Part shown: positions 1,234-60,765 of the stretch, piece by piece
Numbering within the stretch: position 1 is the stretch's first letter
Layout of the letters: every line of letters begins with the position of its first letter
Assembly: GCA_905234185.1 (NCBI GenBank)
Contig: CAJOGC010000002.1
Coordinates: 103,949-167,948 of the forward strand
DNA length: 64,000 bases
DNA from: an uncultured Alphaproteobacteria bacterium
Lineage (GTDB): Bacteria; Pseudomonadota; Alphaproteobacteria; Rs-D84
Direction of reading: 5' to 3'
Position numbers and translations under genes: made by a program
The notes under the pieces: generated by a model
Database searches by the model: none
Told to the model about the DNA's origin: nothing
What the model saw: the letters and a program-made list of their open reading frames with translations, nothing else

Positions 1234-3621
1234 ATGAGTAAACTTGGCGAACAATTTTCAGAACTGCGCAAATCAACACCAAAATATGTCCAGTGGTTAT
1301 TGCTGGCCGCGGCACTTGTTATCGTTTTAATTTTGTTGACTTTGCTTATGACGGGGCCAAAAAATAAAACGGCCCGGTCTGCCCAAAAATCTATGGACGA
1401 AACGCCTATCGAAGTTCGTATGATTACGATAAATGCCGACAACCAAGAAGTTTCTGTTGATAAAATCGATTGGGCCAATGTGATTGTCGGTGAGAAAAAG
1501 AGTACCACGATAACAATCAAAACAAATGCACCGACACGCGTATCTATGACCCAGAACAAGAATATTGTTGGGTTTTCTGCACAAACCACATGTACGGATG
1601 CGACCGTTATAAATGCAAAACTATCATGCAATATATATCTTAAATTCGAACCGACAACCGCCATGTCTCCGGAAACAGTGACATTGTCTGTTTATTGGCG
1701 CGCTGAAAACGACCCCGAAACAATGAATAACACGAAAAAGATTTCTGTCGTTTTGGGTGCCACCGCACCGGTCGTGCGACCTGAACCACAACCAATTGTC
1801 GAACCAGAACCGCTGTTTTCCGACGATTATGACGAACTTGACGATTATGATGAATATGATGACAATGTCGAACCACACCCAACAATTCGTGCGGAAATAG
1901 AATCAATTGCGCCGGCGTTGCCGTTCAATTCCGATATCGTGGAACCCGCACCCGTTGTGGAACGACCATCTGAATCTTGTTCTGATTTTGCCTTTCCGGG
2001 GTATGGTCCAAATGGAAATCAAATTGGCTGGATAAAACCCGAACGCGGCGGATATTATTTTCATCCTTTCTCGGACAAAGATTGTAAAAATGCAACGGGA
2101 ATCTATAACCCGGCAACCGGTGTTATTACCGATATCAGCGGCAATGGAACACGTATCGGAACCGATGCCGAACATATTGGGTATGCGGCCATAAATGATG
2201 GCGCATTGCCGGCACTAAATCCGGCCCCGCGTAGCGCAAGAACCGCATCTAATACCACGGTTTCTTCGACCAATGTTCCTATTGCTGGCATGGGCAAGGT
2301 TATTGTAAAGAAGGAACCAGATGTTGAATTTGCCTCCAGCGGCACAGACACCGTCACAAATACAGTTGCTTACGATCGCACCTTTATATTGCGTCAATAC
2401 AAACCTATTCCGGCGACAATCGTTTCCGATGTTCGTGCCGACCCATCGTTATACAAGCAGGGAAATACACTGCCTGTACGGGCGACGGTTGATCGCAATG
2501 TATATTCCGATAATGGACGCACTGTTATTATCCCGGCGGGGACAATGTTGTTGGGGTATCTGACCGGCACCATGCCCGGACCATATACGGCTATTGGTCG
2601 GATGGAGGTTAATTGGTATCAATTTGTTTTACCAAATGGTGTTGAGTTTAATTTCAGTGGTGCCAATGATCCGTTTTCTGGCGATGCCCAGGGGCGTGTC
2701 GGCGTTCCTGGTCGTGGCAGCACCGATTATTTGGAACAATTTGTTATGCCAATGTTAACGGCAATTGTGCCGGCGGCGGTGAATATGATTGCCCCGGTTG
2801 CCGACAAATTCGTTAATCAAATTGATTTGGACAATAATACAGTTGTACAAAGCGGAACAGTGCGATCGTCTGAATTGGCAAAGAACGAGATTATCACCGC
2901 ATGGAACCAAGTTGCCCAGAAATTATTGGTTGATATGATGGATAACACCGTGCCACCATTTACAATTCCGGCGGGGACCCGTATCACTGTTTATTCACCG
3001 GCTGATTTACAAGTCACGTGTGGCGCCCCAGGTACCAGTAATAAAAAGTGTGCCGTTGCTAAATACAGCGACGCAAAACGCCAATTGTGGAAAAATAGTG
3101 CCGAACCAGATTACTATGACGGTTCATGGGTGGGCCAGGCGCGTTCGTTCAATCTGGAACAATATTGCACAACAGACACTAATAATTTAAGGCGCGCATT
3201 ACCATACAGCGATGTTGGGGCTGAATTACAAAAACTTGGTTATTCATACAGCACGCTTGTTGCGTATTGCCAGGCAAGTAATTACCAGGCGATAAATAAT
3301 GCGCGTCAGGATGCCATTTATCAAAACCAACAAAACCCAAACAACAAAAACAGTGTTGCAAACGCCACCGCCCAGGGGACCAAAACATATAATGAACAGG
3401 TTCTTGGATTGAAATACAATGACGATGGTTCTATTAAGAATCCGTATCAGTCGGAAAAGAAACCAGAATCACAACAACCGACTAATGTCATCACATGTGA
3501 TGATGGTTTGGCACCGGACCAATACGGGTGTTGCACGGGTGAAATATACACAGATATGGGCGAACAGGGTTTCAATTGCTGTCCCCAATCTGGTGGCGAT
3601 TGTTTCCCGCCGATTTTGTGA
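1234..3621 (+). CDS. virB10: VirB10/TrbI-family type IV secretion protein with extra N-terminal Ig-like region and long Cys-rich C-terminal extension
   Basis: It has an N-terminal TM helix (WLLLAAALVIVLILLTLLM) and an acidic, Pro-rich linker (DDYDELDDYDEYDD, PVVRPEPQPIVEPEP). The TrbI/VirB10 core is present (YKPIPATIVSDV...IIPAGTMLLGYL...GRMEVNWYQFVLPNGVEF...DAQGRVGVPG...IPAGTRITVYSP). ATG 1234 is preferred over GTG 1222 from the ORF track. Confidence 0.75.
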   Translation: MSKLGEQFSELRKSTPKYVQWLLLAAALVIVLILLTLLMTGPKNKTARSAQKSMDETPIEVRMITINADNQEVSVDKIDWANVIVGEKKSTTITIKTNAPTRVSMTQNKNIVGFSAQTTCTDATVINAKLSCNIYLKFEPTTAMSPETVTLSVYWRAENDPETMNNTKKISVVLGATAPVVRPEPQPIVEPEPLFSDDYDELDDYDEYDDNVEPHPTIRAEIESIAPALPFNSDIVEPAPVVERPSESCSDFAFPGYGPNGNQIGWIKPERGGYYFHPFSDKDCKNATGIYNPATGVITDISGNGTRIGTDAEHIGYAAINDGALPALNPAPRSARTASNTTVSSTNVPIAGMGKVIVKKEPDVEFASSGTDTVTNTVAYDRTFILRQYKPIPATIVSDVRADPSLYKQGNTLPVRATVDRNVYSDNGRTVIIPAGTMLLGYLTGTMPGPYTAIGRMEVNWYQFVLPNGVEFNFSGANDPFSGDAQGRVGVPGRGSTDYLEQFVMPMLTAIVPAAVNMIAPVADKFVNQIDLDNNTVVQSGTVRSSELAKNEIITAWNQVAQKLLVDMMDNTVPPFTIPAGTRITVYSPADLQVTCGAPGTSNKKCAVAKYSDAKRQLWKNSAEPDYYDGSWVGQARSFNLEQYCTTDTNNLRRALPYSDVGAELQKLGYSYSTLVAYCQASNYQAINNARQDAIYQNQQNPNNKNSVANATAQGTKTYNEQVLGLKYNDDGSIKNPYQSEKKPESQQPTNVITCDDGLAPDQYGCCTGEIYTDMGEQGFNCCPQSGGDCFPPIL

Positions 3622-3644
3622 TATCACAAAAATTATAGAGACAT

Positions 3645-3671
3645 AAAAACCCACATGCGTGGGTTTTTTTT
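3645..3671 (+). terminator. Rho-independent terminator after virB10
   Basis: The hairpin ACCCAC-atgc-GTGGGT is followed by a T9 run, 24 nt after the virB10 stop. Confidence 0.7.
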
Positions 3672-3923
3672 ATCGGAAAAAGAGGTTGAAAATGAACACA
3701 TCTTGAACCATATATGTGTACAACAATACGTGCGTGCTTTTCATGCGCGCATTTTATTTATCGCAAAACAGCATGTTTTTGCGATTCGTACATCAAAAGA
3801 AAAATTATTAAAACGAATCGAAAAACCGATTCGCACTTCAATCAAAAGTTGTAGTGTTTAATATTATTCTTATTAAGCCCTATAACACAATTGTAACCAT
3901 TTTATAAAACAATGGAGAAATAA

Positions 3924-4268
3924 ATGACACAAACACAAACTGCATACACACCCGAAAAATTCCAGAACGCCGAACAACTATGGTTTTGGTTTCTATATTC
4001 TAAATCTGTTCAGAATGACTATACACGCCGGCGCGAAACCGCCACACGCCGAGTATGTGAATTACTTGATGTAGAAGCACTGATAACAAAACTATATCTG
4101 TGCGGCAAAATAACCGATGAACAATTGGTCGTTATGAAAAAGTTTGGCGATCGCCGGCGTGCCCCACATCAATATATCTGGGCTGAAAATCGTGCCGCCG
4201 CTTTATGGCGATGCGCAATGGAAACAATCGAATCAGCCGCACGCGATCGCGGTTGGATTAATAAATAA
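3924..4268 (+). CDS. hypothetical protein, 114 aa, basic and Trp-rich
   Basis: The ORF has an upstream GGAGA RBS (aatGGAGAaataaATG). I recognise no domain. Confidence 0.5.
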   Translation: MTQTQTAYTPEKFQNAEQLWFWFLYSKSVQNDYTRRRETATRRVCELLDVEALITKLYLCGKITDEQLVVMKKFGDRRRAPHQYIWAENRAAALWRCAMETIESAARDRGWINK

Positions 4269-4287
4269 AACAAGATAGAGGTAAAAA

Positions 4288-4629
4288 ATGATTATCATTG
4301 CATTTTCTGGTAAAACATCGAAATTATTACCACAAATATTCTGCAACCATTTTCGCCATTGTGCACCCATAGTACCCCACGGAAACAAATTGATCATGTA
4401 TCAATTTACCACCAGGAATAATATTGCAACAATCGAATTAAAGAATCGCGATATTGCAATATTGCGCGCACACGGTTGGCAATTTGTCTATATTCCGACC
4501 GATATACAACATGATTTCAATCCCGAGCGCGCATATTCATGTGTCGATTTATCAAAACGCGCCATTGGTATTAATAATCTATTTATACAAACACCATATA
4601 TGCTTTATAAATACATTGCACCACAATAA
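4288..4629 (+). CDS. hypothetical protein, possibly a permuted papain-like (YiiX/C92-type) amidase
   Basis: A GAGG RBS lies upstream. A His-containing block (FRHCAPIV) comes before a C-terminal Cys block (YSCVDLSKRAIGI), the order seen in permuted NlpC/P60-like enzymes. The assignment is weak. Confidence 0.4.
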   Translation: MIIIAFSGKTSKLLPQIFCNHFRHCAPIVPHGNKLIMYQFTTRNNIATIELKNRDIAILRAHGWQFVYIPTDIQHDFNPERAYSCVDLSKRAIGINNLFIQTPYMLYKYIAPQ

Positions 4630-4653
4630 AAAATGCCCGAACGGGCATTTTTT
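4628..4653. terminator. bidirectional terminator between the 4288 gene and yidC
   Basis: AAAAAATGCCCGaacGGGCATTTTTT: a perfect hairpin flanked by A and T runs. Confidence 0.7.
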
Positions 4654-6217
4654 ACTTTTCCATTTTATGTTTAATTATGTACATCTGGGCAATACCAAAC
4701 AGATTTGATACCGTCCAATAAAGTACTAACCCCGCCGGCATCCATGCAAACATAATTGTAAATATAATCGGCATCCAACGCATAGCACGTTGGGTCTGGG
4801 CGGCGACATCGTTTTTATCAGTGGATTTTGTTGCACCAGATTGCAAACGTTGTTGCAACCACATACTTGCCCCCATCAGTATTGGCAATATAAAATATGG
4901 GTCCATTACTGCCAAGTCGGAAATCCAAAGGAAGTGCGCATTACGCATCTGGACCGAAATCAATAATGCTTTATACAACGCAAAGAAAATCGGAATCTGA
5001 ATCAGCATCGGCAAACACCCAGACATAGGCGAAGTTTTATGCGTCTGGTACAGTTTCATTATTTCAATCTGCATACGTTGTTTATCATTCGCATAAAGTT
5101 TCTGTATGCGTTGCATTTCCGGCTGCATTTTCTGCATCGCCGCCATTGATGTGTATGATTTGCGCGTTAATGGCCACAGTGCAAGGCGCAACAAGATTGT
5201 CATTATAATGATCGCAACGCCATAATTCATAACAATCGAATTGATTGTATTTATCAGCCATAACATAGGCATTGCCAAGAACCAGAACCATCCATAATCA
5301 ACTGTTTTATCAATCCCTGGAATCTGGCTCGATGCAACTTTCAACACAGAACTGTCACGGGGACCGGCATACAGCAATGTCTTTATGTTTGCCTTTTCGC
5401 CCGCCACCACATTCACCGCGCGCGCATTAACATCAGATTGATACAAATCACCATATTTCTGGGCACGAATCGTTTGATCGGGCGCATCCACATCAACAAC
5501 CGTTTCCCAGTATTGGTCAACAAACCCCATAAAACCGTTTACCGTTGTATATGCACGCGGTTTCTTGGCCAACACGCGCCAGTCATCATGTTCAACATCA
5601 CCGTTGGCATATACAACCAAGCCGGTATAAACACCCGCGGACGACATTGTATTATTTTCACGTTGAATCCGTGCATATGGAGTAAATGAAAAGTCTTTTT
5701 TTGTATTATTTTTAATCTCGTCATCAATGGTTATAACATAATTATCAATCGCAACGGTTCTGTTGAAAATTACACCGTCCGCATTGCGCCAAGTATATTT
5801 ATCGCCATCGGCTTTCCATACCGTATCGGCGGTTGGCGCAGTTGTTCCAACACCAACGACACCTATTTCGGCATATGCATTTTCACCAGACAATAATTTG
5901 ACCGTTTCATTGCTATTGGAATTGGCCTTGAAATCACGCAAATCAATGTCCGATATACGCAATCCTTGGACATTGGCAGTCATTTTATCAGATGATATTT
6001 CATACGATGGAACATTTGATACATCAACGACCGCAACGGGTGCATCATCAACTGTGACCGTTTTAGTTTGCTTGCCAAACATCACACCAATTGCCCACCA
6101 AGCGGCCATAAACACAATGAACCACCACAAAAAACCACCAATACCACCACGTTTTTTAGTTTGATTCGCGTTCCACGCGGCAAACCCTGAATTATTATTG
6201 TCCAGATATTTAACCAT
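4652..6217 (-). CDS. yidC: membrane protein insertase YidC
   Basis: It has an N-terminal TM helix, a large periplasmic domain, and the conserved C-terminal core (MQKMQPEMQRIQKLY...SPMSGCLPMLIQIPIFFALY...DPYFILPILMG). Confidence 0.9.
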   Translation of the reverse strand: MVKYLDNNNSGFAAWNANQTKKRGGIGGFLWWFIVFMAAWWAIGVMFGKQTKTVTVDDAPVAVVDVSNVPSYEISSDKMTANVQGLRISDIDLRDFKANSNSNETVKLLSGENAYAEIGVVGVGTTAPTADTVWKADGDKYTWRNADGVIFNRTVAIDNYVITIDDEIKNNTKKDFSFTPYARIQRENNTMSSAGVYTGLVVYANGDVEHDDWRVLAKKPRAYTTVNGFMGFVDQYWETVVDVDAPDQTIRAQKYGDLYQSDVNARAVNVVAGEKANIKTLLYAGPRDSSVLKVASSQIPGIDKTVDYGWFWFLAMPMLWLINTINSIVMNYGVAIIIMTILLRLALWPLTRKSYTSMAAMQKMQPEMQRIQKLYANDKQRMQIEIMKLYQTHKTSPMSGCLPMLIQIPIFFALYKALLISVQMRNAHFLWISDLAVMDPYFILPILMGASMWLQQRLQSGATKSTDKNDVAAQTQRAMRWMPIIFTIMFAWMPAGLVLYWTVSNLFGIAQMYIIKHKMEK

Positions 6218-11278: not shown

Positions 11279-12961
11279 ATGAAACAAAAGTCATACATTA
11301 TTGACGATAAACAACTGATGTCCGAATGGGACTGGGATGCCAATGTTGGTTTAGATCCGAAAACATTAACCCGTGGATCAAATAAAAAGGCATGGTGGGT
11401 ATGTTCGGTATGTGGGCATAAATGGTGTGCCGATATACATCATAGAGCCGTAAGAAAACAAGGTTGTTTAAACTGCCGATATGTATATAAAAAACAACTT
11501 GCTTCTATTTTGTCTGAAACACATCCAAAAGTCCTTAAATACTGGGATTTTTCAAAAAATAAATTGATAACCCCCGAAATTGTCAGCCAGAATTCGCGTA
11601 AAAGCGTTTGGTGGCATTGTCCAGATTGTGGCCATGAATGGGAAGAAAAAATAAAAAATCAGGTTAAAAAATTAGTTTGGTGCCCACATTGTAAGAAGGG
11701 AATTAAAGATTTGGCTTCTGTGGAACCAGAACTTGCAAAAGAATGGCATAAAACAAAAAATACTGATGCCCCAGAACATATTTCGTATGCTTCTAACAAA
11801 TATGCATGGTGGAAATGCCAAAAGTGTGGTTACGAATGGAAAGCCAGAATAGCCAACAGGTCAATATTGAAACGGGGGTGTCCTTGTTGTTCTGGTGGTG
11901 CGGTTGTCGTCGGAATAAACGATTTAAAAACAAAGTTTCCGCATATAGCAAAAGAATGGCACCCTACAAAAAACGGTGAACTTTTACCAGAACAAGTCAC
12001 TTCTGGTACAAGAAAGAAAGTTTGGTGGCAATGCCCACTGGGACACGAATACCAAGCAACGGTAGGACACAGGACATCACAAAATGGCACAGGGTGTCCA
12101 ATATGTTATTCAGGACGTCAAACATCATTCGCTGAACAGGCTGTATTCTTTTATGTAAAACAATTATATCCCGACGCACTAAGCAGGTATAAGGCAGACT
12201 TTTTGGGAAAATTTGAATTGGATATTTATATCCCATCAATCAAATATGCGATAGAATACGATGGTGAAGCATGGCATAAAGCGAATAAATTAGAACGCGA
12301 AAAACGAAAGTATCAATTGTGCAAACAGAACGGCATCACATTACTCAGATTACGAGAAAAGGAACCAGAACATGATGCTGAAGTGGCAGATGATATAATT
12401 TGTGTGAAAAATCTATACGAACACAGAAATCTTGAAATGGTATTAAGACGGTTATTGGTGAAATTGAACCCGCAATCGGTAATGCCTGACAACTTTGTTA
12501 ATTTGGCCAGGGATAATCATAAAATCTTGGAATATAAAAAATCGGCCATATCAGAATCATTGATGTCCGTCAGACCAGATATTGCGATGGAATGGCATCC
12601 AACAAAAAATGGTAACCTGTTACCAAGTATGTTTAAAGCAGGTTCTGAACATAAAGTATGGTGGATTTGTCCAAAGTGTGCCACCGAATATCAAACAAGT
12701 ATTGCTCATAGAACAGATAAAAAGGTTCCAACAGGATGCCCAAAGTGTGGCAAAGAGCGAAGTGACTTAGCGAAAAGTGTCGCTGTAAATATGTTAGATT
12801 TGAAAACGAAAAAAGTATTAAAAACATTCGTTTCTGTATCAGATGCATCAAGGCAAATGAAAATCAATTTATCTAACATATGTATGGCTTGCAAAGGCCA
12901 ACGCAACCAAGCTGGTGGGTACGGTTGGGAATATAATTTAAAAATATGCAAAAGAAAATAA
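11279..12961 (+). CDS. multi-zinc-ribbon protein with central DUF559/Vsr-like PD-(D/E)XK nuclease core and C-terminal NUMOD1-like HTH (homing-endonuclease-like)
   Basis: There are five repeats of [EW..KN...P + WW.C..CGH.W......R....CP.C]. The central block FELDIYIPSIKYAIEYDGEAWH...GITLLRLRE resembles the DUF559 core. The tail (FVSVSDASRQMKINLSNICMACKG..NQAGGYGWEY) resembles NUMOD1/IENR-type DNA-binding modules. Confidence 0.75.
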   Translation: MKQKSYIIDDKQLMSEWDWDANVGLDPKTLTRGSNKKAWWVCSVCGHKWCADIHHRAVRKQGCLNCRYVYKKQLASILSETHPKVLKYWDFSKNKLITPEIVSQNSRKSVWWHCPDCGHEWEEKIKNQVKKLVWCPHCKKGIKDLASVEPELAKEWHKTKNTDAPEHISYASNKYAWWKCQKCGYEWKARIANRSILKRGCPCCSGGAVVVGINDLKTKFPHIAKEWHPTKNGELLPEQVTSGTRKKVWWQCPLGHEYQATVGHRTSQNGTGCPICYSGRQTSFAEQAVFFYVKQLYPDALSRYKADFLGKFELDIYIPSIKYAIEYDGEAWHKANKLEREKRKYQLCKQNGITLLRLREKEPEHDAEVADDIICVKNLYEHRNLEMVLRRLLVKLNPQSVMPDNFVNLARDNHKILEYKKSAISESLMSVRPDIAMEWHPTKNGNLLPSMFKAGSEHKVWWICPKCATEYQTSIAHRTDKKVPTGCPKCGKERSDLAKSVAVNMLDLKTKKVLKTFVSVSDASRQMKINLSNICMACKGQRNQAGGYGWEYNLKICKRK

Positions 12962-19364: not shown

Positions 19365-19444
19365 AAGAACACCTTTCCTTATGGACTTTTATCATAGGAA
19401 AAATATCGTTGCGATGCAATCAAATAAAATCCTATACTGGAACT

Positions 19445-21376
19445 ATGAATGAAACATTGGAAAATCAACGGCCTAATCTGTTTTTGTGGGTGCCATTTGT
19501 AATGGCGGCGGGGGCGGCGTTATATTTTTCGTGTTCGCATGAACCGAAACTGCCGTTTTGTTGGTTGTTTGCTATTATTACATTTTGCGCCGCGGCGTTT
19601 TTGCGCACGCCAATCATTATTCGCGGAATATTACTTTTTGTTTTTGGTTTTTGTTATGCGAACGCTTACACAAATATGCTTGATACACCAATTATGCCAC
19701 GCGACATGCACGATATAAGTATTACTGGTCGCATTACGGCAATTGACCATACACCCGACAAAGCCAGAATTTTTATTCGTGTGCCAAACCCAGTCCTTAA
19801 TATAAAAGCGAATGGCGATTCAATTGTTCGTGTTTCTGTTGAACTGGATACTGTTCCGAAACCAGGCGACATAATATCAACAACCGCGACACTGTTCACG
19901 CCAACCCCACCAGACATATATGGCGGGTTCGACTTTGCACGATGGGCATATTTCAACGGAATTACCGCGACGGGATATGCGGACAATATAACAATATCAT
20001 CGAACGGCACAACAAATAATATTCGTGATTGGTTGCACAATAAATCAGATTCCATATTAGTGGACAGTTTAGTACTGGGGTATAAAAACACTTTACCAAA
20101 GGCGGAACGCGCAACTTGGGTGTCCGCCGGTGTCGGACACATTTGGTCAATAAGTGGTTTTCATATGACATTAATCGGTGGTTGGCTGTTTGCGATTTTC
20201 TATTTTATATTTCGTTGCATACCGTCCGTTGTTCGTCGCATACCGGCACGACACATTGCGGCAATATTCGCATGGATTGGCGTTATGATTTATTTATTCG
20301 TATCAGGCATGGGGGTTGCAACAATTCGCGCCTTTTTAATGGCAACGTTATTAATGGTCGCCGCGATTATGGGACGGTCCGCTTTTTCATTACGCAATGT
20401 ATGCTTGGTGTTTTGTTTAATATTTTTGATAAACCCATATTATGTGATGACCGCCGGTTTTCAATTATCGTTTTCCGCAATATTCGGATTGGTATGGTTT
20501 TGGACCGTGGTTAACCCAAAACTGCCTGAAAATAGAATATTGCGCACATTGTGCACCGCTGTTTTGACAGCGACAATCGCATCACTTTTTACTGCACCAT
20601 TTGTCGCATTGCATTTTTATTCGGTACCATTATACAGCATTATTGGCAACCTGGTCTTGTTACCAATATTTTCATTTGTAATAATGCCGCTGGTAATAAT
20701 TGGATCACTGCTTGCATTATTTAATGTTTATTTTCCATTACATATCGCGGATTATGCTTACCATTGGGCGCTGGACATTGCGAATCACATATCACATTTG
20801 CCGTTTGCAACAATGACACCGGCACATGTTTCCAACACTGCAATTTGTTTTATCGTTTTTGGCATGATGTGCATCGTTTTTGTTCGCCCGGTCCGGCTAA
20901 AGATTAATTATATTCTAGGTGCAATTTTTATCTTAATCGGCACAATTATTGTTGCCGCAACCCCACGACCTGTTTTCTTTGCGACACCGGATCACGAACT
21001 GGTTGGTGTTGTACAAAATGGTGAAATATTATTTAACAAATCACGCGCATCAAACCACTATTTTGCATTTGATATATGGAAACATTTAACCAACAGCGAT
21101 ATAAATACACAAAACAATCGTGCAAAACATAATCGCGGATTGTATATCTTTGAAACGCCGAAATATAAAATTGCATATATACAGAAATTCACAGCATTAC
21201 AAAATAACATCGCTAAACTTTGCGACGATGAAAATATAGATTTTATAGTTTCATATCTGGAAATAAATGGCGACCGTTGTGCAAACAAGATTTTGCATGG
21301 TGGTTTTACAATTTATGAAAACGGGAAAATTATTTATGTACCGACATCTCGTCGTTGGAATAATCTGCACCAATAA
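19445..21376 (+). CDS. comEC: ComEC/Rec2-family DNA internalization channel protein (no recognisable metallo-beta-lactamase motif)
   Basis: The protein is polytopic and has a competence-domain block (VGHIWSISGFHMTLIGG). ATG 19445 (MNETLENQRPNLFLW) is preferred over TTG 19409. I see no HxHxDH motif in the C-terminal part. Confidence 0.8.
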   Translation: MNETLENQRPNLFLWVPFVMAAGAALYFSCSHEPKLPFCWLFAIITFCAAAFLRTPIIIRGILLFVFGFCYANAYTNMLDTPIMPRDMHDISITGRITAIDHTPDKARIFIRVPNPVLNIKANGDSIVRVSVELDTVPKPGDIISTTATLFTPTPPDIYGGFDFARWAYFNGITATGYADNITISSNGTTNNIRDWLHNKSDSILVDSLVLGYKNTLPKAERATWVSAGVGHIWSISGFHMTLIGGWLFAIFYFIFRCIPSVVRRIPARHIAAIFAWIGVMIYLFVSGMGVATIRAFLMATLLMVAAIMGRSAFSLRNVCLVFCLIFLINPYYVMTAGFQLSFSAIFGLVWFWTVVNPKLPENRILRTLCTAVLTATIASLFTAPFVALHFYSVPLYSIIGNLVLLPIFSFVIMPLVIIGSLLALFNVYFPLHIADYAYHWALDIANHISHLPFATMTPAHVSNTAICFIVFGMMCIVFVRPVRLKINYILGAIFILIGTIIVAATPRPVFFATPDHELVGVVQNGEILFNKSRASNHYFAFDIWKHLTNSDINTQNNRAKHNRGLYIFETPKYKIAYIQKFTALQNNIAKLCDDENIDFIVSYLEINGDRCANKILHGGFTIYENGKIIYVPTSRRWNNLHQ

Positions 21377-53353: not shown

Positions 53354-53566
53354 TTAGAAATTAAATCCGGCAAATTTGCTCTTGAATTCCGCCGCGCGCT
53401 GACCCTTATCCCCGGCATTTGCACGTTGTCCGGTCCACGCAGAATGGTTCAAGTTATCGGTTGACAAAACCAAATCCTTCTTAACCGAAGAATACATTTT
53501 AACCGTTTTACCATCAGTCATTGTGACATTGATTTCATGGTATTCTGGATGAATTCCTTTTTTCAT
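53354..53566 (-). CDS. rpmE: 50S ribosomal protein L31
   Basis: MKKGIHPEYHEINVTMTDG... Confidence 0.9.
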   Translation of the reverse strand: MKKGIHPEYHEINVTMTDGKTVKMYSSVKKDLVLSTDNLNHSAWTGQRANAGDKGQRAAEFKSKFAGFNF

Positions 53567-53639: not shown

Positions 53640-54149
53640 TTAATAGCGTCCGATACACCCTAAATAAGAATTACCGGTCGATTCGAGAATATTTATAAAC
53701 TGATTCTGATTTTTACCGGAAAACAGTGCCAAAATAGTTCCGGCATCTGTGGCCAGCATATCCGCCACCGTTGCGATGGACGAATTCATTTTCTTGAAAA
53801 ATCCACTGGCTGGGTATATTTCCGCGGCAAACAATTGATGACCACCACGCGTATTTGCGGAATTTTCCGCGCGGATAACCATCAGTTGACATTCCGGTGA
53901 AATAATAACTTTGTCCGTCACGACGGCACCGCCACCAAGCAATTCGCCCCACCAGCCCGTCGATTCGCAAAACACGGGATAGTACACGATCGCATCTGGG
54001 TTTGATTCGAATATAGAAGGCAAATCCAAATCCGTTGATATAACATCCGGCATTTCGCCCGTTGCGGTATTTATAACCTTGCGTGCCAACTGATATGTTG
54101 CATCACCATTTGTTTTGCGTGGCCAATAAAGAATCGGAAACTGCTTCAT
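53640..54149 (-). CDS. hypothetical protein, 169 aa, no signal peptide
   Basis: The ORF lies 68 nt downstream of the divergent VirB6-like gene on the same strand. I recognise no domain. Confidence 0.5.
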   Translation of the reverse strand: MKQFPILYWPRKTNGDATYQLARKVINTATGEMPDVISTDLDLPSIFESNPDAIVYYPVFCESTGWWGELLGGGAVVTDKVIISPECQLMVIRAENSANTRGGHQLFAAEIYPASGFFKKMNSSIATVADMLATDAGTILALFSGKNQNQFINILESTGNSYLGCIGRY

Positions 54150-54217
54150 TGATGTGAATTATATCAGATTCGGAACACATAAAAAAGGGGCATATGTAAA
54201 ATAAAGCACTTGATTTT

Positions 54218-55504
54218 TTATTTTTTTATAACTTTCCAGAGTTTCTGCAGGTTTGCCCACGTCACTTCCAGGTTCTTTTTTGTCGTCTGATAGAATTTAT
54301 CCGATATTTTTACATTGAACAATGTTTCGATAAGTGCGGGAATAGATGTCATAAACATAGCGATAAATATCCCCATAAGGATGATTGTCACAATGCTGTC
54401 ATTACGCATCATCAATCCATCCATAAGAATTGTCGAATCGTTCTGTGCAAGTGCCGTCACTAATGCATTCGCCCCGCCCCAATCACCAAACATCGCGTCC
54501 AAGAACATTATTGCAAATGTCACAAATATACCAGTCAATGCCAGTCCCAATGTCCCCTTGACCACATCATCGATAATCGATTCGATATTTTTTCCACCAC
54601 CCGGCAATATTTTCCACCCATTAAATATCCATGCCAATAAGTTTAATGGCAACATTATCAAATCCAGTGATAAATTTATGAATATTTCCAAGAAAAAGAT
54701 GGGTATCGGCAATAATGCCGCAAAAAACAAAACCAGTATTAGTAATCCGCTAAAAAATATTAATACATTCGGGAAAATCGGAATATCCAGAATAATTTTG
54801 TGCATATACTTTTCATTAAATGCCATATTCAGCATCGTCCATCCCACCGCCATCCCAAGCCCGGTCATTTGATGAACAACCCCTAATTCACATGCCAGAT
54901 TATGACGCAACTTTGGTGAAAATGCCCCGCGCGACGCCGCATCCACAGACACAGATGCCGGATCCGCAATTGCGGTCGCAATGATACAATTATTAAATTC
55001 ATCATCGCCAACAACGATATGATTCATTGACATGCCTACATTAAATATCGGTTCTATTGCTATATCATTTATCATTCGTGGCAATGGCGCGACCAATAGC
55101 CCACAAACAACCGCTAATTTTATAACACGCACGCCAAAATCACCGGACAATGACCATGGTTCAATATTTTTTGCATTCATATAATTTGAAAGTAATTGCC
55201 ACGCAAACCAAATTGCCAAAAATGCCGCTGCAAACGGGATAATTACCGCACCAATCGCACTGTACACCCCCGGCAAAATATCAGACATCGTTCCAATTAC
55301 ATCCGAAAACATCTGGCACGACCAACATGTCGAAAAGAAATTAAGCGCGTCACTCATGTTAACCGGAACGGCCGTACGGTATATTGCAAACCCGGCTAAA
55401 ACGCCAACCCCTGCGATTGCGCCGACGACCCATGGTGCCACCGCCCCCGCCGCAAATGGCAAGAACGATAAAAACACTATCCAAAACTTTCTAAACCTAT
55501 TCAT
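54218..55504 (-). CDS. VirB6/TrbL-like polytopic membrane protein, paralog 1 (divergent)
   Basis: It has multiple TM helices and an N-terminal CWSCQMF motif. The central loop carries a Cys pair. The late block IMLPLNLLAWIFNGW resembles the VirB6/TrbL ...PL....Y.F....W region. The tail is Lys-rich. Confidence 0.5.
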   Translation of the reverse strand: MNRFRKFWIVFLSFLPFAAGAVAPWVVGAIAGVGVLAGFAIYRTAVPVNMSDALNFFSTCWSCQMFSDVIGTMSDILPGVYSAIGAVIIPFAAAFLAIWFAWQLLSNYMNAKNIEPWSLSGDFGVRVIKLAVVCGLLVAPLPRMINDIAIEPIFNVGMSMNHIVVGDDEFNNCIIATAIADPASVSVDAASRGAFSPKLRHNLACELGVVHQMTGLGMAVGWTMLNMAFNEKYMHKIILDIPIFPNVLIFFSGLLILVLFFAALLPIPIFFLEIFINLSLDLIMLPLNLLAWIFNGWKILPGGGKNIESIIDDVVKGTLGLALTGIFVTFAIMFLDAMFGDWGGANALVTALAQNDSTILMDGLMMRNDSIVTIILMGIFIAMFMTSIPALIETLFNVKISDKFYQTTKKNLEVTWANLQKLWKVIKK

Positions 55505-55515
55505 ATCATAATAAG

Positions 55516-55545
55516 TATATCACATTTTGTCCCAAATGTGATATA
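55516..55545. promoter_or_regulatory. perfect 12-6-12 palindrome in divergent promoter region (putative operator)
   Basis: TATATCACATTT-tgtccc-AAATGTGATATA. The right arm overlaps a TATAAT hexamer (55542..55547). The left arm overlaps TATACT on the opposite strand. Confidence 0.5.
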
Positions 55546-55578
55546 ATTGAAAAGATAAAAATGTAAACACGAGAGAGA

Positions 55579-56817
55579 ATGAATATCATCCGGCGGATTT
55601 TACCGTGCATATTTTTGGCGGCAATGTTTGTTGTGCCCATGCCTGCATTGGCCGAATGGGGTGTTGTTGACCGATTAAATCTTGCGCCGTTTATACCACT
55701 GGTATTGGACGCAATGATGGCAATTGCATCCGGCGGATATGAATTCTTTGTTGGGAATGGCGACGGTATTATTTATCTTTTGGTATGGGGATTTTTAGCG
55801 ATAACGATTGCATTATACCTTGTAAAATTATATTTACCAAAAAATTGGTCGGGAATATTTGGTTTTTCTGGTGGTGGCGAAATGGCGGACGGAAAAATCG
55901 GGGTCCAAACCATCATTTACAATGTCCTTAAGCCATGTATGCGTGGAATAATCGCGGCCGCAATTCTATTACAAATTCGCCCGGTTATGTTGACCGAAGT
56001 GCTTGTTAACCCGTTTTTACAGTTTGGCGCACTGTATACCCATGCCATTACGGAAACCATTAATGACACCGGTGTTAATACGCAAAAAATCAAATGTCCT
56101 GAATCCATAGTGCAAAAAGAATGGATTTCGGAATCTTCGTGCAATTTTCTGATTCAATCAGTATCTGATTTGTCGGCGGCAAACAATACCATTATTAAGC
56201 GCGGCTTCGAATACATTACATCTGGATTTGCCGGATTAATGACAATATTTCCGCGTGGCGAACACGCATTTCTGAATATTATTACCGGTGTAATTTTAGT
56301 TGCGACTTTTTTCAGCAGCAATCTTTTCATGGCATTGCTGATTATAGAGGCAATATTTAGATTTGGTATGGCATTGGTGTTATATCCATTTCATGTTTTA
56401 TCATATGTTGCAAAGCCTAATGATAAATGGCTGGACATATGGCCTGCATTCGCCGGTATTACCAAAGAATTGCAAAGACTGGTTATCACAATGATTATGT
56501 GTTCATTTATGCTGTGCATAAACATTGCAATTATACGGGCACTGTTCACATGGAACACATCCATATTTACGGTTGCGTCCGATGGTGTCGTACCCGGCGG
56601 ATTCGGATCACATTCTATATTGTGGCTGTCATCGATATTAACATTTTATCTGATGTTCAAATTATTTAACATGACACAAAGACAACTGGAAACATATGTC
56701 GGTGGTCGCGGTGAATTGTATGACCAAGTGATTGGCGACACAAAAACACTTTGGTCACGAATCAAAGATACAACAAAAACAATCGGCATGTCCGCTGGAT
56801 GGATTAAAAAGAAATGA
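55579..56817 (+). CDS. VirB6/TrbL-like polytopic membrane protein, paralog 2
   Basis: It has a signal peptide (FVVPMPALA), multiple TM helices, a central-loop Cys pair (KCPES...SSCNF), the block LVLYPFHVLSYVAKPNDKW, and a KKK tail. Confidence 0.5.
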   Translation: MNIIRRILPCIFLAAMFVVPMPALAEWGVVDRLNLAPFIPLVLDAMMAIASGGYEFFVGNGDGIIYLLVWGFLAITIALYLVKLYLPKNWSGIFGFSGGGEMADGKIGVQTIIYNVLKPCMRGIIAAAILLQIRPVMLTEVLVNPFLQFGALYTHAITETINDTGVNTQKIKCPESIVQKEWISESSCNFLIQSVSDLSAANNTIIKRGFEYITSGFAGLMTIFPRGEHAFLNIITGVILVATFFSSNLFMALLIIEAIFRFGMALVLYPFHVLSYVAKPNDKWLDIWPAFAGITKELQRLVITMIMCSFMLCINIAIIRALFTWNTSIFTVASDGVVPGGFGSHSILWLSSILTFYLMFKLFNMTQRQLETYVGGRGELYDQVIGDTKTLWSRIKDTTKTIGMSAGWIKKK

Positions 56818-58025
56818 ACAATATCGCAGGCAATTTTATCGATGGCGTTGTGCAGTGCTATGGCTGTCCGATATTTGATCGGCTTTTCCAGATTGTATCC
56901 AGCGCCGCCGCCGCGGTTTATAATAAAATGGCATTTTTGGCCACATTGATATTCTGTGTATTGTTTGCATTTTTTGTAGTCAATGCGGTGTGGCAAAACA
57001 TTAAAAAAGATATTCCCGATCCGTGGTACCAAAAATCCGTACGACCGGTTATAATTAACTCTTTGGTGGCGCTGACATTTTTATGGATGGGTGTCGGATT
57101 GCCACGGCTTATCACCACAGCAACATTTGAACCCGTCGCCCAGATATCATTAATCTATACACAAAGCATGCTTAATATCGACGAAAAAATTGTTAATGAG
57201 CGCGTCACATATCAACCCATCCAGATGAATGACGATGGTTTTTTCACAGTCGGTTTACGCGACAAAGTAATTATGCTTATGAAAACAACAATAACGCAAT
57301 TCCAGTCTTATATGAAACTGGGCATCGCGGTTATGGATACCGCATTCTCTTGGCGCGCATTGCTGGGGGTTGGTGCATTAATTAAGCATATAATTTTGTT
57401 CTTTATCGGATTGTATATTTTTTGGGCATTTTTTAGATTGTTTTTCAGATTCTGTTGTTATTTTGCAGATATAATTGTCGCGATGGCCATGTTTGCATTT
57501 TTCTTTCCTTTATCATTAGTGCTTATCGCGTTTCGTGGCGCAGATAGTGTTCCGTCTTGGATATCGGGGTTGGGCAAAGATGTTGGTCTAAATCAATTGA
57601 AAAATCTTGTTAATGCAATCATCGCATTATCTGCCGCGGTTATAACATATACGGTTGTCATGGTAATCATCGCAAAGTTTTTTGCATCCCCAGATGCGTC
57701 CGTCAACGATATTATGAATGCAATTACAACGGGGAATATATTCGACCTGGATTTATCGGATGACAACCTGGCAATGCTTAGTGTTACGGGAACGCTTGTG
57801 CTGGTTTATGTTGTGAATTTTATAACAAGCAAAAAACAAATATCCGAAGTCACTAAAATGATATTATCTGCATTTAATGTAAGCACCAAAAATGATGTTA
57901 GCGAACAATTAGCAAATGATGCAATGCAATTAACATCGGCGGCATTAAAAACCGCGAAACAAATTGGCACAACCATCATATCCGGTGGTGATAAAAAGGA
58001 TGACAAAGCACCAGATAAAAAATGA
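56814..58025 (+). CDS. VirB6/TrbL-like polytopic membrane protein, paralog 3
   Basis: The start overlaps the previous stop (ATGA). It has an N-terminal CYGCPIF motif, the block FFFPLSLVLIAFRG, and a Lys/Asp-rich tail. Confidence 0.5.
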   Translation: MNNIAGNFIDGVVQCYGCPIFDRLFQIVSSAAAAVYNKMAFLATLIFCVLFAFFVVNAVWQNIKKDIPDPWYQKSVRPVIINSLVALTFLWMGVGLPRLITTATFEPVAQISLIYTQSMLNIDEKIVNERVTYQPIQMNDDGFFTVGLRDKVIMLMKTTITQFQSYMKLGIAVMDTAFSWRALLGVGALIKHIILFFIGLYIFWAFFRLFFRFCCYFADIIVAMAMFAFFFPLSLVLIAFRGADSVPSWISGLGKDVGLNQLKNLVNAIIALSAAVITYTVVMVIIAKFFASPDASVNDIMNAITTGNIFDLDLSDDNLAMLSVTGTLVLVYVVNFITSKKQISEVTKMILSAFNVSTKNDVSEQLANDAMQLTSAALKTAKQIGTTIISGGDKKDDKAPDKK

Positions 58026-59458
58026 AAGCACAGGTAATATTAATTCTTGTTCGTTTTATTATGGGCGCAATCGCGTTGGGACTGGGCATTTGGTATCTGT
58101 CGTCATCCATTAGCGGTGATTCGATAACATACACCAGTATGGACAACTTTCTGAATGCTATTGGTGCAGGTGACGATATTGCCAACGCAAACGGTTGCTT
58201 TATGTGCAAATACATTACCGAATTATTTGGGGTATTGGGACGTGCAACGGAATTATTCTGGAATGCGATTGTGGGTCATCTTTGGTTATTAATGGCATTG
58301 GGATTTGGTGTGTTTTTGGTTGTATACACGGGACGCTATATTTTCGATGCGGCCAAAAAGACTGCGACATTGGACACATCTGAAAAGAAAATAGAAATCA
58401 TGACATGGTTCAACCGTGTATGGCGCCAAGGTGTACGTGTTTTAATTGCCGGCGCGTTTCTTGGCGTATTTGGCATGGGTGGCACAACCGCACTAAAATA
58501 TGTGACAAAAATCACCGTGACTCCGGTGATGTTTGTCGGGGCTGAATTAGGGATGGTGGCATCCGGCGTATCAAGTGCAACCCAGTGTGGCGCAATGGGA
58601 ACCGTTGCTGATTCGGATGATATACTTAATCCTGTATTACAGCCGTTTATGTGTTCGATTGGAAACCTGAATGCCGTGATGCTTGCGGGTGCCGGTGGCG
58701 GTTTTTCATTAATGAATTATGCGTGGTTGGGTATGGGCGGCGGTGCGATTACCTGGGTCGCGGGGCTTGCACTGGTCATTATGTTTTTGATTATCGGATT
58801 TGATTTATTTTTTCAGGTATTAAGTATCGTTATGAAATTAATATTCATTATTATATTCATGCCGTTATTTATCGCGGCATATGCGTTTGAACCCGTATGG
58901 AAAGCCATGTCAAATTTGACATCCCGTGCATTAGACATGCTGGTATCATCCGCTGTAAAAATTGTCGGCATATCATTAAAGGTCGTGATTTTATATGCAA
59001 CCGTATCATATTCTGCTGATGCGTTTTTCCCGGGACCCGTTGATGGGTTTAGTACTATTTTACCGCCAATGATGGGTCAAACGGTTGAAAATCCAGATGC
59101 ACAAACACTTTCTGTAATAAATACATTCCGTGAATGCGAACATGTTGCATTGGTTAATGGTGAAATGGATAAAGATTTATTCAAAAATTGCTTTACTGCG
59201 CACCGCGCAACCGTAGAGCGCAAATATCCCGGTGCTTTTGACTTTATGGGCGACGGGTGGGGATTTATGATGCTGATGATTGGTCTGTTTGCGTTGTATT
59301 ATTGGGTCGTTTCGCCAAAAATCGATGCTATACTAACACCCACAAAGGGAACAGAATCATTCGATTTCGGCACTAATATAAAGCAACTTGGTAAAAACAT
59401 TTGGAAATCTCCCATCCAAATAACGGAAAAAATAATATCTGTATTCGGCAAAAAATGA
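58022..59458 (+). CDS. VirB6/TrbL-like polytopic membrane protein, paralog 4
   Basis: The start overlaps the previous stop (ATGA). It has a CFMCKYI motif, a loop Cys pair (QCGAM...FMCSIG), and IIFMPLFIAAYAFEPVWKAM, which is close to the VirB6 ...GPLILTGYIFDRT...W pattern. Confidence 0.55.
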   Translation: MKAQVILILVRFIMGAIALGLGIWYLSSSISGDSITYTSMDNFLNAIGAGDDIANANGCFMCKYITELFGVLGRATELFWNAIVGHLWLLMALGFGVFLVVYTGRYIFDAAKKTATLDTSEKKIEIMTWFNRVWRQGVRVLIAGAFLGVFGMGGTTALKYVTKITVTPVMFVGAELGMVASGVSSATQCGAMGTVADSDDILNPVLQPFMCSIGNLNAVMLAGAGGGFSLMNYAWLGMGGGAITWVAGLALVIMFLIIGFDLFFQVLSIVMKLIFIIIFMPLFIAAYAFEPVWKAMSNLTSRALDMLVSSAVKIVGISLKVVILYATVSYSADAFFPGPVDGFSTILPPMMGQTVENPDAQTLSVINTFRECEHVALVNGEMDKDLFKNCFTAHRATVERKYPGAFDFMGDGWGFMMLMIGLFALYYWVVSPKIDAILTPTKGTESFDFGTNIKQLGKNIWKSPIQITEKIISVFGKK

Positions 59459-60765
59459 TGAAATATATTAAACAATTTTTATCAAAAATGCTTATCGCGA
59501 TTATGTGCATATCGCTGTCGTTTTCTGCGATTGCTGCATCGGATACACCATCTGGGGACATGGGCGAACACGAAACATTCGTGACCGAACACAGCATAAC
59601 AATGTTTAATAGTTCATTGACCGATGACGTCACGCAATTCCAAGACGGTTTCCAGAAACAACTTGTTCGTGATTATGTCCCAATCGAAGCACGTGTTGGC
59701 ATCGCCATGATGAATGGGTTAACACATGTTGCAAAAATATTGGATACTTCTCTTGTCCATTTTATGGTTATTTTCATAATCGTAATGTATCTGTTCTGGA
59801 TAATGTTCGAAGGATACAATTTTGTCCAAAAAGGCGATGGTAATATTAAAAAGTTAATTATGGACATCGGTAAAAAAGCAATATGGATTATCATTTGGGT
59901 TTCTGTTCTTGAATTCGGACCAGCACGTTTATTCATGTGGGCGATGGGTCCAATTGTTTCGATTGGAACAGCATTGTCGGATTTTATACTAAACGCGGTT
60001 GCATCTGTATCTGGTGCAATTTTACCGGACACATGTGGGGCAATTCGCGAATATGCCGTGGCAAACACGGCCCCGGACATGCTTATTGACGCAACCGCCG
60101 CGGCCGATTTAATGTGTGTTCCATCGCGCTTATCTGGATTCTTTACAACTGGTATTGTTGCGGGTTGGAAATGGATGATTGCCGGTATTGGCCACAGCGC
60201 ATTTAGTTTTACCATGGGCGCAATATTTATAATAGTCTTTGCATGGAACGCATGGAAATTCGCATTAATGGCACTGGGGGTTATAATGGATTTGTTTTTA
60301 GGGGTATTGTTGCTGCCATTTACGGCGTTTGCTGAAACAATAACCCCGACATCGTACAAGGGGCTGGCCGGGAATATATTTAATGGATTTCTTAAACTAT
60401 TTAATCCAGGATCGGTTAAATTGGACGCGCAAATAAATCGTTTTATAAATGCAGCGATTTATTTTGTATCATTGTCGATTGTAATCGCTGTTTGTGCGGC
60501 GTTGCTTTATGGCGTAATTGGGTCAGATTTATCGGCCACGGTTCCAACGCTTGAAAACGATGGTTTTATTCCGACATTGCTTACCGGGTTATTAGTCGGA
60601 TATTTTGCAAATATGGCCGGCGACATTGCCAAGAATGTTGGCGGTGGTGCGTCTGTTGACGCCACATTTGGCAACAATTTTGGCGAAGATGTAAAAACAT
60701 TAGCAAAAGATACATATAAAGTCGCCAAAGACTGGGCCAAAGCCATCGCAGAAAGCAAGAAATAA
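59455..60765 (+). CDS. VirB6/TrbL-like polytopic membrane protein, paralog 5
   Basis: The start is moved to ATG 59455 (MMKYIKQF..., signal peptide SFSAIAA), overlapping the previous stop. It has a loop Cys pair (DTCGAI...LMCVPS), the block LLLPFTAFAE, and a Lys-rich tail. Confidence 0.5.
   Translation: MMKYIKQFLSKMLIAIMCISLSFSAIAASDTPSGDMGEHETFVTEHSITMFNSSLTDDVTQFQDGFQKQLVRDYVPIEARVGIAMMNGLTHVAKILDTSLVHFMVIFIIVMYLFWIMFEGYNFVQKGDGNIKKLIMDIGKKAIWIIIWVSVLEFGPARLFMWAMGPIVSIGTALSDFILNAVASVSGAILPDTCGAIREYAVANTAPDMLIDATAAADLMCVPSRLSGFFTTGIVAGWKWMIAGIGHSAFSFTMGAIFIIVFAWNAWKFALMALGVIMDLFLGVLLLPFTAFAETITPTSYKGLAGNIFNGFLKLFNPGSVKLDAQINRFINAAIYFVSLSIVIAVCAALLYGVIGSDLSATVPTLENDGFIPTLLTGLLVGYFANMAGDIAKNVGGGASVDATFGNNFGEDVKTLAKDTYKVAKDWAKAIAESKK

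Follow-up and report, generated by a model that had tools for sequence, protein, structure and literature searches.

At the centre of type IV secretion systems (T4SS) stands a pentameric platform, the base of the stalk, which is made of the polytopic protein VirB6, as established for TrwI of R388 and for DotA of Legionella (PMC12857230). In the Rickettsiales, four to five tandem VirB6 paralogues, which are co-transcribed, follow virB3-virB4 (PMC7648143). The hallmarks given for the rickettsial rvh system, itself called a rickettsial signature, include multicopy RvhB6; VirB4, VirB8 and VirB9 are duplicated in this system and VirB5 is missing (PMC11077975). The TrbL domain of Rickettsia RvhB6 averages 413 amino acids (aa) per copy (PMC2653234). 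Here we describe an array of five genes, A to E, at positions 54218-60765 of a 64,000-nt stretch of DNA from an uncultured alphaproteobacterium (GenBank contig CAJOGC010000002.1; the whole stretch is called the window below). The array probably consists of five very divergent, core-domain-only VirB6 paralogues of a scattered, rvh-like chromosomal T4SS outside the Rickettsiales. An earlier reading of the same DNA (the original prediction), which had correctly stated that the multiplied virB6 genes of Rickettsiales follow virB3-virB4, left two alternatives: a further scattered, shortened VirB6 family, or an unrelated membrane complex. The predicted fold, a chain of profile comparisons and the presence of T4SS genes in the lineage support the first; the second is not supported.

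Paralogue A (54218-55504, - strand; 428 aa) is VirB6-like and divergently oriented to the other four; it has an N-terminal anchor, a CxxC motif at residues 60-63 and a Cys pair at 173/205. On the + strand follow B (55579-56817; 412 aa), the most divergent copy, with a signal-peptide-like N-terminus and a Cys pair at 173/188 and without CxxC; C (56814-58025; 403 aa), without signal peptide and with CxxC at 15-18; D (58022-59458; 478 aa), with CxxC at 59-62 and two invariant Cys pairs (189/211 and 372/390); and E (59455-60765; 436 aa), with a signal-peptide-like N-terminus and a Cys pair at 194/221. The five proteins sum to 2157 aa. The longest open reading frame (ORF) of E begins at TTG 59401, and the coupled start, from which its length is counted, is ATG 59455. 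C, D and E each start with an ATGA that overlaps the stop codon of the gene before. All three junctions (B-C, C-D and D-E) read AAAAAATGA, and the terminal Lys-Lys codons of the upstream gene form the A-run preceding the ATG of the next. The original prediction had given five genes of 403-478 aa, one divergent and four rightward, with ATGA overlaps at 56814, 58022 and 59455 and Lys-rich tails; the ORF listing and the junction sequences bear it out on each point.

Conservation was analyzed in one genome per species, which yielded 80 loci from Candidatus Enterousia or uncultured Alphaproteobacteria of rumen and gut; the genomes closest to the window are Candidatus Enterousia. Wherever a contig spans the array, none of the five genes is missing and their order and orientation do not change (43-87% identity), which answers the question of conservation in relatives that the original prediction had raised. 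At the orthologous junctions the genes overlap by 4 nt or 1 nt or lie a few bases apart. The CxxC motifs of A (C60/C63), C (C15/C18) and D (C59/C62) are invariant in 76-81 orthologues, and the central Cys pair is invariant in the orthologues of A (173/205), B (173/188), D (189/211) and E (194/221). The original prediction had seen CxxC in three proteins and a central Cys pair in four, both of which stand; the spacing of 20-33 residues that it gave for the pair fails for B, where it is 15 residues. It had also picked out a Pro-Leu (P-L) block. When D, E and B are aligned with the A and C families, P286 of A, which lies in this block, is invariant, and P152, G221, G253, F260 and P286 are invariant positions across the families. 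Hydropathy windows delimit five to seven hydrophobic segments per paralogue and, in the middle, a hydrophilic stretch of about 80-100 residues in which the Cys pair is found, in keeping with the VirB6 pattern of about five or more helices and a large central loop.

Among the five proteins, pairwise BLAST detected a clear relationship only between A and C (21% identity over 382 aa), and most pairs were not significant. Comparison of the orthologue alignments with hhalign gave colinear, near-full-length matches with probabilities of 96.7% for A-C (326 columns), 92% for A-E, 92% for B-E, 82% for C-D and 76% for A-D. These matches link all five, in answer to the all-against-all alignment proposed in the original prediction. 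A hidden Markov model (HMM) built from outside relatives only matched all five window proteins with 66-203 bits, and no other ORF of the window or of two further loci (L081 and L090) was among its matches. Judged from these profiles, A to E are paralogues of one family.

The relationship to VirB6 emerged from structure prediction and from intermediate sequences. In Foldseek searches with AlphaFold2 models, the two best matches were the TrwI/VirB6 chains 8rt9_F and 8rtd_L, and three 7o3v chains were also in the top eight. These matches reached a probability of 1.0 with template modelling (TM) scores of 0.45-0.56, compared to about 0.1 for everything else. The modelled fold is that of the solved VirB6, TrwI of R388. 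For C, D and E, the assignment to VirB6 rests on profile comparisons. An A+C profile searched against 1.84 billion representatives retrieved 1118 relatives. Pfam TrbL was matched by 13 of 71 distant relatives, and at locus L089 two tandem paralogues, a 425-aa protein (34.8 bits) and P0411 (29.0 bits), exceed the gathering threshold of PF04610 (TrbL/VirB6; 25.9 bits). A bridge alignment of 42 distant relatives outside the five families matched canonical VirB6 with 96.6% probability (E 5.9e-10, 249 columns; hhalign), and the families in turn matched the bridge with 100% (A), 98.8% (B), 99.9% (C), 99.7% (D) and 99.7% (E). Through this transitive chain, A to E are placed in the VirB6/TrbL superfamily. 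For D and B, the central P-L block could be matched to canonical TrbL/VirB6 weakly but at a consistent position.

Further arrays occur among the relatives. Locus L087 has five tandem members of 770, 781, 857, 474 and 650 aa, three of them with N-terminal extensions of about 300 residues; these long proteins resemble the 'extended VirB6' of Rickettsiales. L089 has four array members with overlapping stops, and L088 at least three. None of these three arrays is adjacent to recognisable T4SS genes, and detached tandem arrays are therefore a property of the whole subfamily. At two of the loci (L088:6275-7264 and L089:11584-12564), a double HTH_3 regulator of about 327 aa comes after the VirB6-like array, followed by four more unannotated ORFs without a match to the family profiles.

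Other T4SS genes are present in the lineage. The window begins with the 3' part of virB9 (1-1212, + strand), which is cut by the window start, with the frame open to base 1; its product, a component of the T4SS outer-membrane core, matches Pfam CagX (1.2e-8) and carries a C-terminal SPOR domain. It is followed by virB10 (1234-3621, + strand), which codes for 795 aa with a TrbI domain (3e-17) and long extensions. This pair lies about 50 kb from the array, as the original prediction had noted. Full-length virB9 codes for 513 aa and comes after virB8 in L081-L083. The exact VirB10 protein occurs on five contigs, the order virB8-virB9-virB10 is seen in three places, and the three genes, which share a contig with the array, are located between secE-nusG and yidC. 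The sequence examined contained a single virB8 and a single virB9. VirD4 (PF02534, 7.6e-54) was found in Enterousia loci. At one locus analyzed by Pfam scan (L123), virD4 is solitary among the housekeeping genes nusA, infB, a sigma factor gene and der, and 80 metagenomic virD4 loci (L091-L170) had no other detectable T4SS gene within 10 kb. The T4SS to which the array probably belongs is chromosomal and vertically inherited, and its genes form islets among housekeeping operons: virB8-virB9-virB10, virD4 alone, and the five virB6.

The array itself is flanked on the A side by rpmE (53354-53566; Pfam L31), h169 (53640-54149, - strand), which codes for a 169-aa soluble hypothetical protein and lies downstream of A on the same strand, and an inositol-monophosphatase-family gene (suhB), and on the other side by uvrD. 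ORF listing and Pfam confirm rpmE, a hypothetical gene and uvrD, the neighbours named by the original prediction. Across loci, rpmE, suhB and h169 remain on the A side, and the uvrD/dnaQ side is rearranged in some species. That the array is detached from all other T4SS genes, as first proposed, holds in general but not in one Enterousia species (L045), the only one in which virD4 (3449-5698, + strand) directly adjoins suhB-h169-A. The rest of the window contained only housekeeping genes in a Pfam scan. Neither VirB3 nor VirB4 was found within 10 kb of the array in the 80 species loci, and a scan for VirB2, VirB3, VirB4, VirB5 and VirB11 with Agrobacterium-type queries over all loci gathered found none.

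Two features of the virB9-virB10 islet are recorded here. The SPOR domain of VirB9 is a peptidoglycan-binding domain, and the unusually long VirB10 (795 aa) contains an acidic region of repeats and ends in a tail rich in Cys (…CDDGLAPDQYGCCTGEIYTDMGEQGFNCCPQSGGDCFPPIL). Three ORFs after virB10 (3655-4629, + strand; 68, 114 and 113 aa), which are called as genes on other contigs too, were considered as VirB2 or VirB7 and rejected, being soluble, without hydrophobic segments and without a Pfam match.

Several results weigh against the assignment of the array to VirB6 and to a T4SS. None of the five proteins matches PF04610 in a Pfam scan even at E ≤ 10, and NCBIfam likewise gave no match. Three profiles (C family, A+C alignment and a diverse alignment) searched against PDB sequences returned no VirB6 match, and none of the families aligned significantly by hhalign with three canonical plasmid VirB6, which are confirmed PF04610 members. 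The AlphaFold2 models are only moderately confident (predicted local distance difference test, pLDDT, 65 and 60). The array is not adjacent to virB3/virB4 in any of the four lineages examined (Enterousia, L087, L088 and L089), and VirB4, VirB3, VirB2 and VirB11 were not found in the approximately 2.5 Mb scanned, which is short of whole genomes. Finally, the promoter-like sites between A and B were found on both strands by consensus matching, and their total count in the region is not above that in shuffles. TraG_N was not matched by any of the five either (Pfam, E ≤ 10), and the sole Pfam match among them at this cutoff is a chance COX4 in D. The original prediction had named a lack of significant similarity to VirB6/TrbL profiles as speaking for a novel family; taken literally, the direct searches, all of which were negative, go that way. 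We nevertheless override this result, because the fold, the transitive profile chain and the T4SS gene context are independently positive.

A and B are separated by a 74-bp intergenic region that contains a palindrome (55516-55545) with perfect 12-bp arms, TATATCACATTT and AAATGTGATATA, 6 nt apart. Both arms include an extended -10 box; the one that faces B reads TGTGATATAAT and the one that faces A TGTGATATACT. The core of the region is at least 90% conserved in 40 aligned sequences (the window and 39 species loci). The palindrome is probably a shared bidirectional promoter or operator. The -10-like boxes of A (55502-55519, - strand) and h169 (54150-54160) end 8-10 nt before the start codons, and in B the leader is about 25 nt long and includes a Shine-Dalgarno-like run, GAGAGAGA. 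Leaderless mRNAs may be common in this organism.

On this basis the array would be expressed as a unit, with A and B-E diverging from one conserved palindromic promoter region, and B, C, D and E would be translationally coupled through their AAAAAATGA junctions, which would favour equimolar synthesis. Given such unit expression and coupling, the five products are most likely parts of one machine, in which they would form or line the stalk in the inner membrane and periplasm. Substrates brought in by VirD4 would move through this stalk to the VirB9/VirB10 core, and each subunit would be stabilised by its paralogue-specific, putatively periplasmic Cys motifs (CxxC and loop pairs). We infer co-expression, joint assembly and a role in secretion for the five proteins.

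More tentatively, A to E may together make up one hetero-pentameric VirB6 stalk, with each protein as a protomer at its own set position, in place of the homopentamer of R388 and Dot/Icm. This idea is attractive because the solved VirB6 and DotA are pentameric (PMC12857230) and because the five genes are strictly kept together and show translational coupling. Enterousia, the unrelated L087 array and Rickettsia (RvhB6a-e) all have five copies; arrays of four also exist. We regard a hetero-pentamer as possible rather than likely. If true, it would explain the multiplication of VirB6 in these lineages, and the core-only set of Enterousia would be a minimal model in which to test it.

Alternatively, the paralogues may not assemble with one another, and each would form a separate homo-pentamer, used alternatively with different substrates, hosts or stages, or would serve as a surface variant, as proposed for Anaplasma VirB6-3/-4. 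The homopentamer is the only solved state (PMC12857230), array size varies (four in L089, at least three in L088, five in L087) so that five is not obligatory, and Anaplasmataceae have four copies (PMC7648143). However, the translational coupling, the single shared promoter region and the strict 1:1 orthology of all five genes in strongly reduced genomes are difficult to reconcile with separate use, and we consider it doubtful, yet a serious competitor.

Less probable is a co-option of VirB6-fold proteins for a T4SS-independent membrane complex, such as an envelope, transport or cell-contact device in a host-dependent bacterium, in which case the likeness to VirB6 would reflect ancestry only. 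Such a role would fit the position of the arrays amid housekeeping genes, never beside virB3/virB4 in the four lineages, the failure to find VirB4, VirB11, VirB2 and VirB3 in the sequence scanned, a divergence too great for PF04610, and the lineage-specific Cys motifs. On the other hand, VirB8, VirB9, VirB10 and VirD4 are kept and conserved in genomes of less than 1 Mb. Their retention would be difficult to account for if there were no stalk component, and besides the array no VirB6 candidate was seen. Scattered T4SS genes are, moreover, the rule in this lineage, in which virD4 is solitary too. That shared hydrophobic composition alone makes unrelated polytopic proteins look like one another and like VirB6 is very improbable and effectively refuted: most BLAST pairs are indeed not significant, and profile scores run high for helical membrane proteins, but the families align colinearly over nearly their full length and share the invariant positions P152, G221, G253, F260 and P286.

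We return to the reading as five VirB6 paralogues of a scattered T4SS and to the genes around them. The h169 gene sits 65-69 nt downstream of A, exactly 68 nt in 66 of 72 Enterousia loci, with 72-95% identity, and its product has no match in Pfam, NCBIfam or PDB. A conserved box of its own (TGATATAAT / TCTGATATAAT) lies 8 nt before its ATG, a position that suggests a leaderless transcript. As a sixth component of the array h169 was rejected because of its separate, conserved promoter-like box and because the L087-L089 arrays lack it. Elsewhere in the window, a 560-aa protein (11279-12961, + strand) with five DUF4379 treble-clef zinc-finger repeats (E 2e-90) and a DUF2726 domain is encoded between a SPOR-bearing D-Ala-D-Ala carboxypeptidase and two unannotated ORFs, and a ComEC-type competence channel protein (19409-21376, + strand; Competence 1.5e-48, plus DUF4131) is kept in this strongly reduced genome. 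Just past the right end of the window (L090:2126-9483), unannotated proteins of 1714 aa (with only a faint Flg_new match) and 685 aa are encoded beside rplU-rpmA and are candidates for surface or secreted proteins.

Enterousia belongs to the GTDB order Rs-D84, has genomes of less than 1 Mb, lacks the majority of biosynthetic functions and is considered dependent on partner cells (PMC12306168). In the NCBI taxonomy the genus stands under Alphaproteobacteria incertae sedis, and a few records carry the label 'uncultured Rickettsiales'. A search of the literature for a T4SS in Rs-D84/Enterousia brought up nothing relevant. Copies of the five proteins in public collections are unnamed or called 'hypothetical protein' only; paralogue C has more than 1018 homologues, all unnamed. 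The family comprises about 1100 clusters at 50% identity, and those members seen with source names are again unnamed or a 'hypothetical protein'. Multicopy VirB6, treated as a hallmark of the Rickettsiales rvh system (PMC11077975), would occur also in a second alphaproteobacterial order, which is gut-dwelling and uncultured, and in other uncultured lineages. Surveys of T4SS based on PF04610 miss these genes and would score such genomes as lacking VirB6. The core-only (about 410-480 aa), translationally coupled set is small enough for multimer prediction or heterologous co-expression, and the array is a concrete candidate for a machine that acts in the interaction between Enterousia and its partner cells.

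Among the known systems, DotA of the Legionella Dot/Icm system (PDB 9NGY) differs from the array in that it is much larger, of type IVB and single-copy. TrwI has about 340 aa, and the window proteins are 70-150 residues longer. They also differ from TrwI (R388; PDB 7O3V, 8RT9 and 8RTD) by additional segments at the N-terminus, by CxxC motifs and by Cys pairs in the loop, and with 10-15% identity there is no match at the sequence level. R388 has a single VirB6 gene, whose product forms a homopentamer with VirB5, and canonical TrbL/VirB6 plasmid genes are single-copy and lie between virB5 and virB8, in contrast to the five copies of the window. From rvh, the Enterousia array differs in several respects: its copies are core-only, without the rvh extensions of 600 to more than 1000 aa; it is not preceded by virB3-virB4, being flanked by rpmE/h169 and uvrD; one copy is divergently transcribed; no virB11-virD4 comes after virB8-virB9-virB10, and virD4 stands alone; CxxC and the Cys motifs of the loop are invariant; and the host lies outside the Rickettsiales (NCBI incertae sedis; GTDB Rs-D84, PMC12306168). 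What the array has in common with rvh is a tandem set of four to five divergent VirB6 paralogues, a host-dependent alphaproteobacterium of reduced genome that carries them, T4SS genes that are divided among chromosomal islets, and a TrbL core of similar length, about 413 aa in Rickettsia (PMC2653234) and 403-478 aa here.

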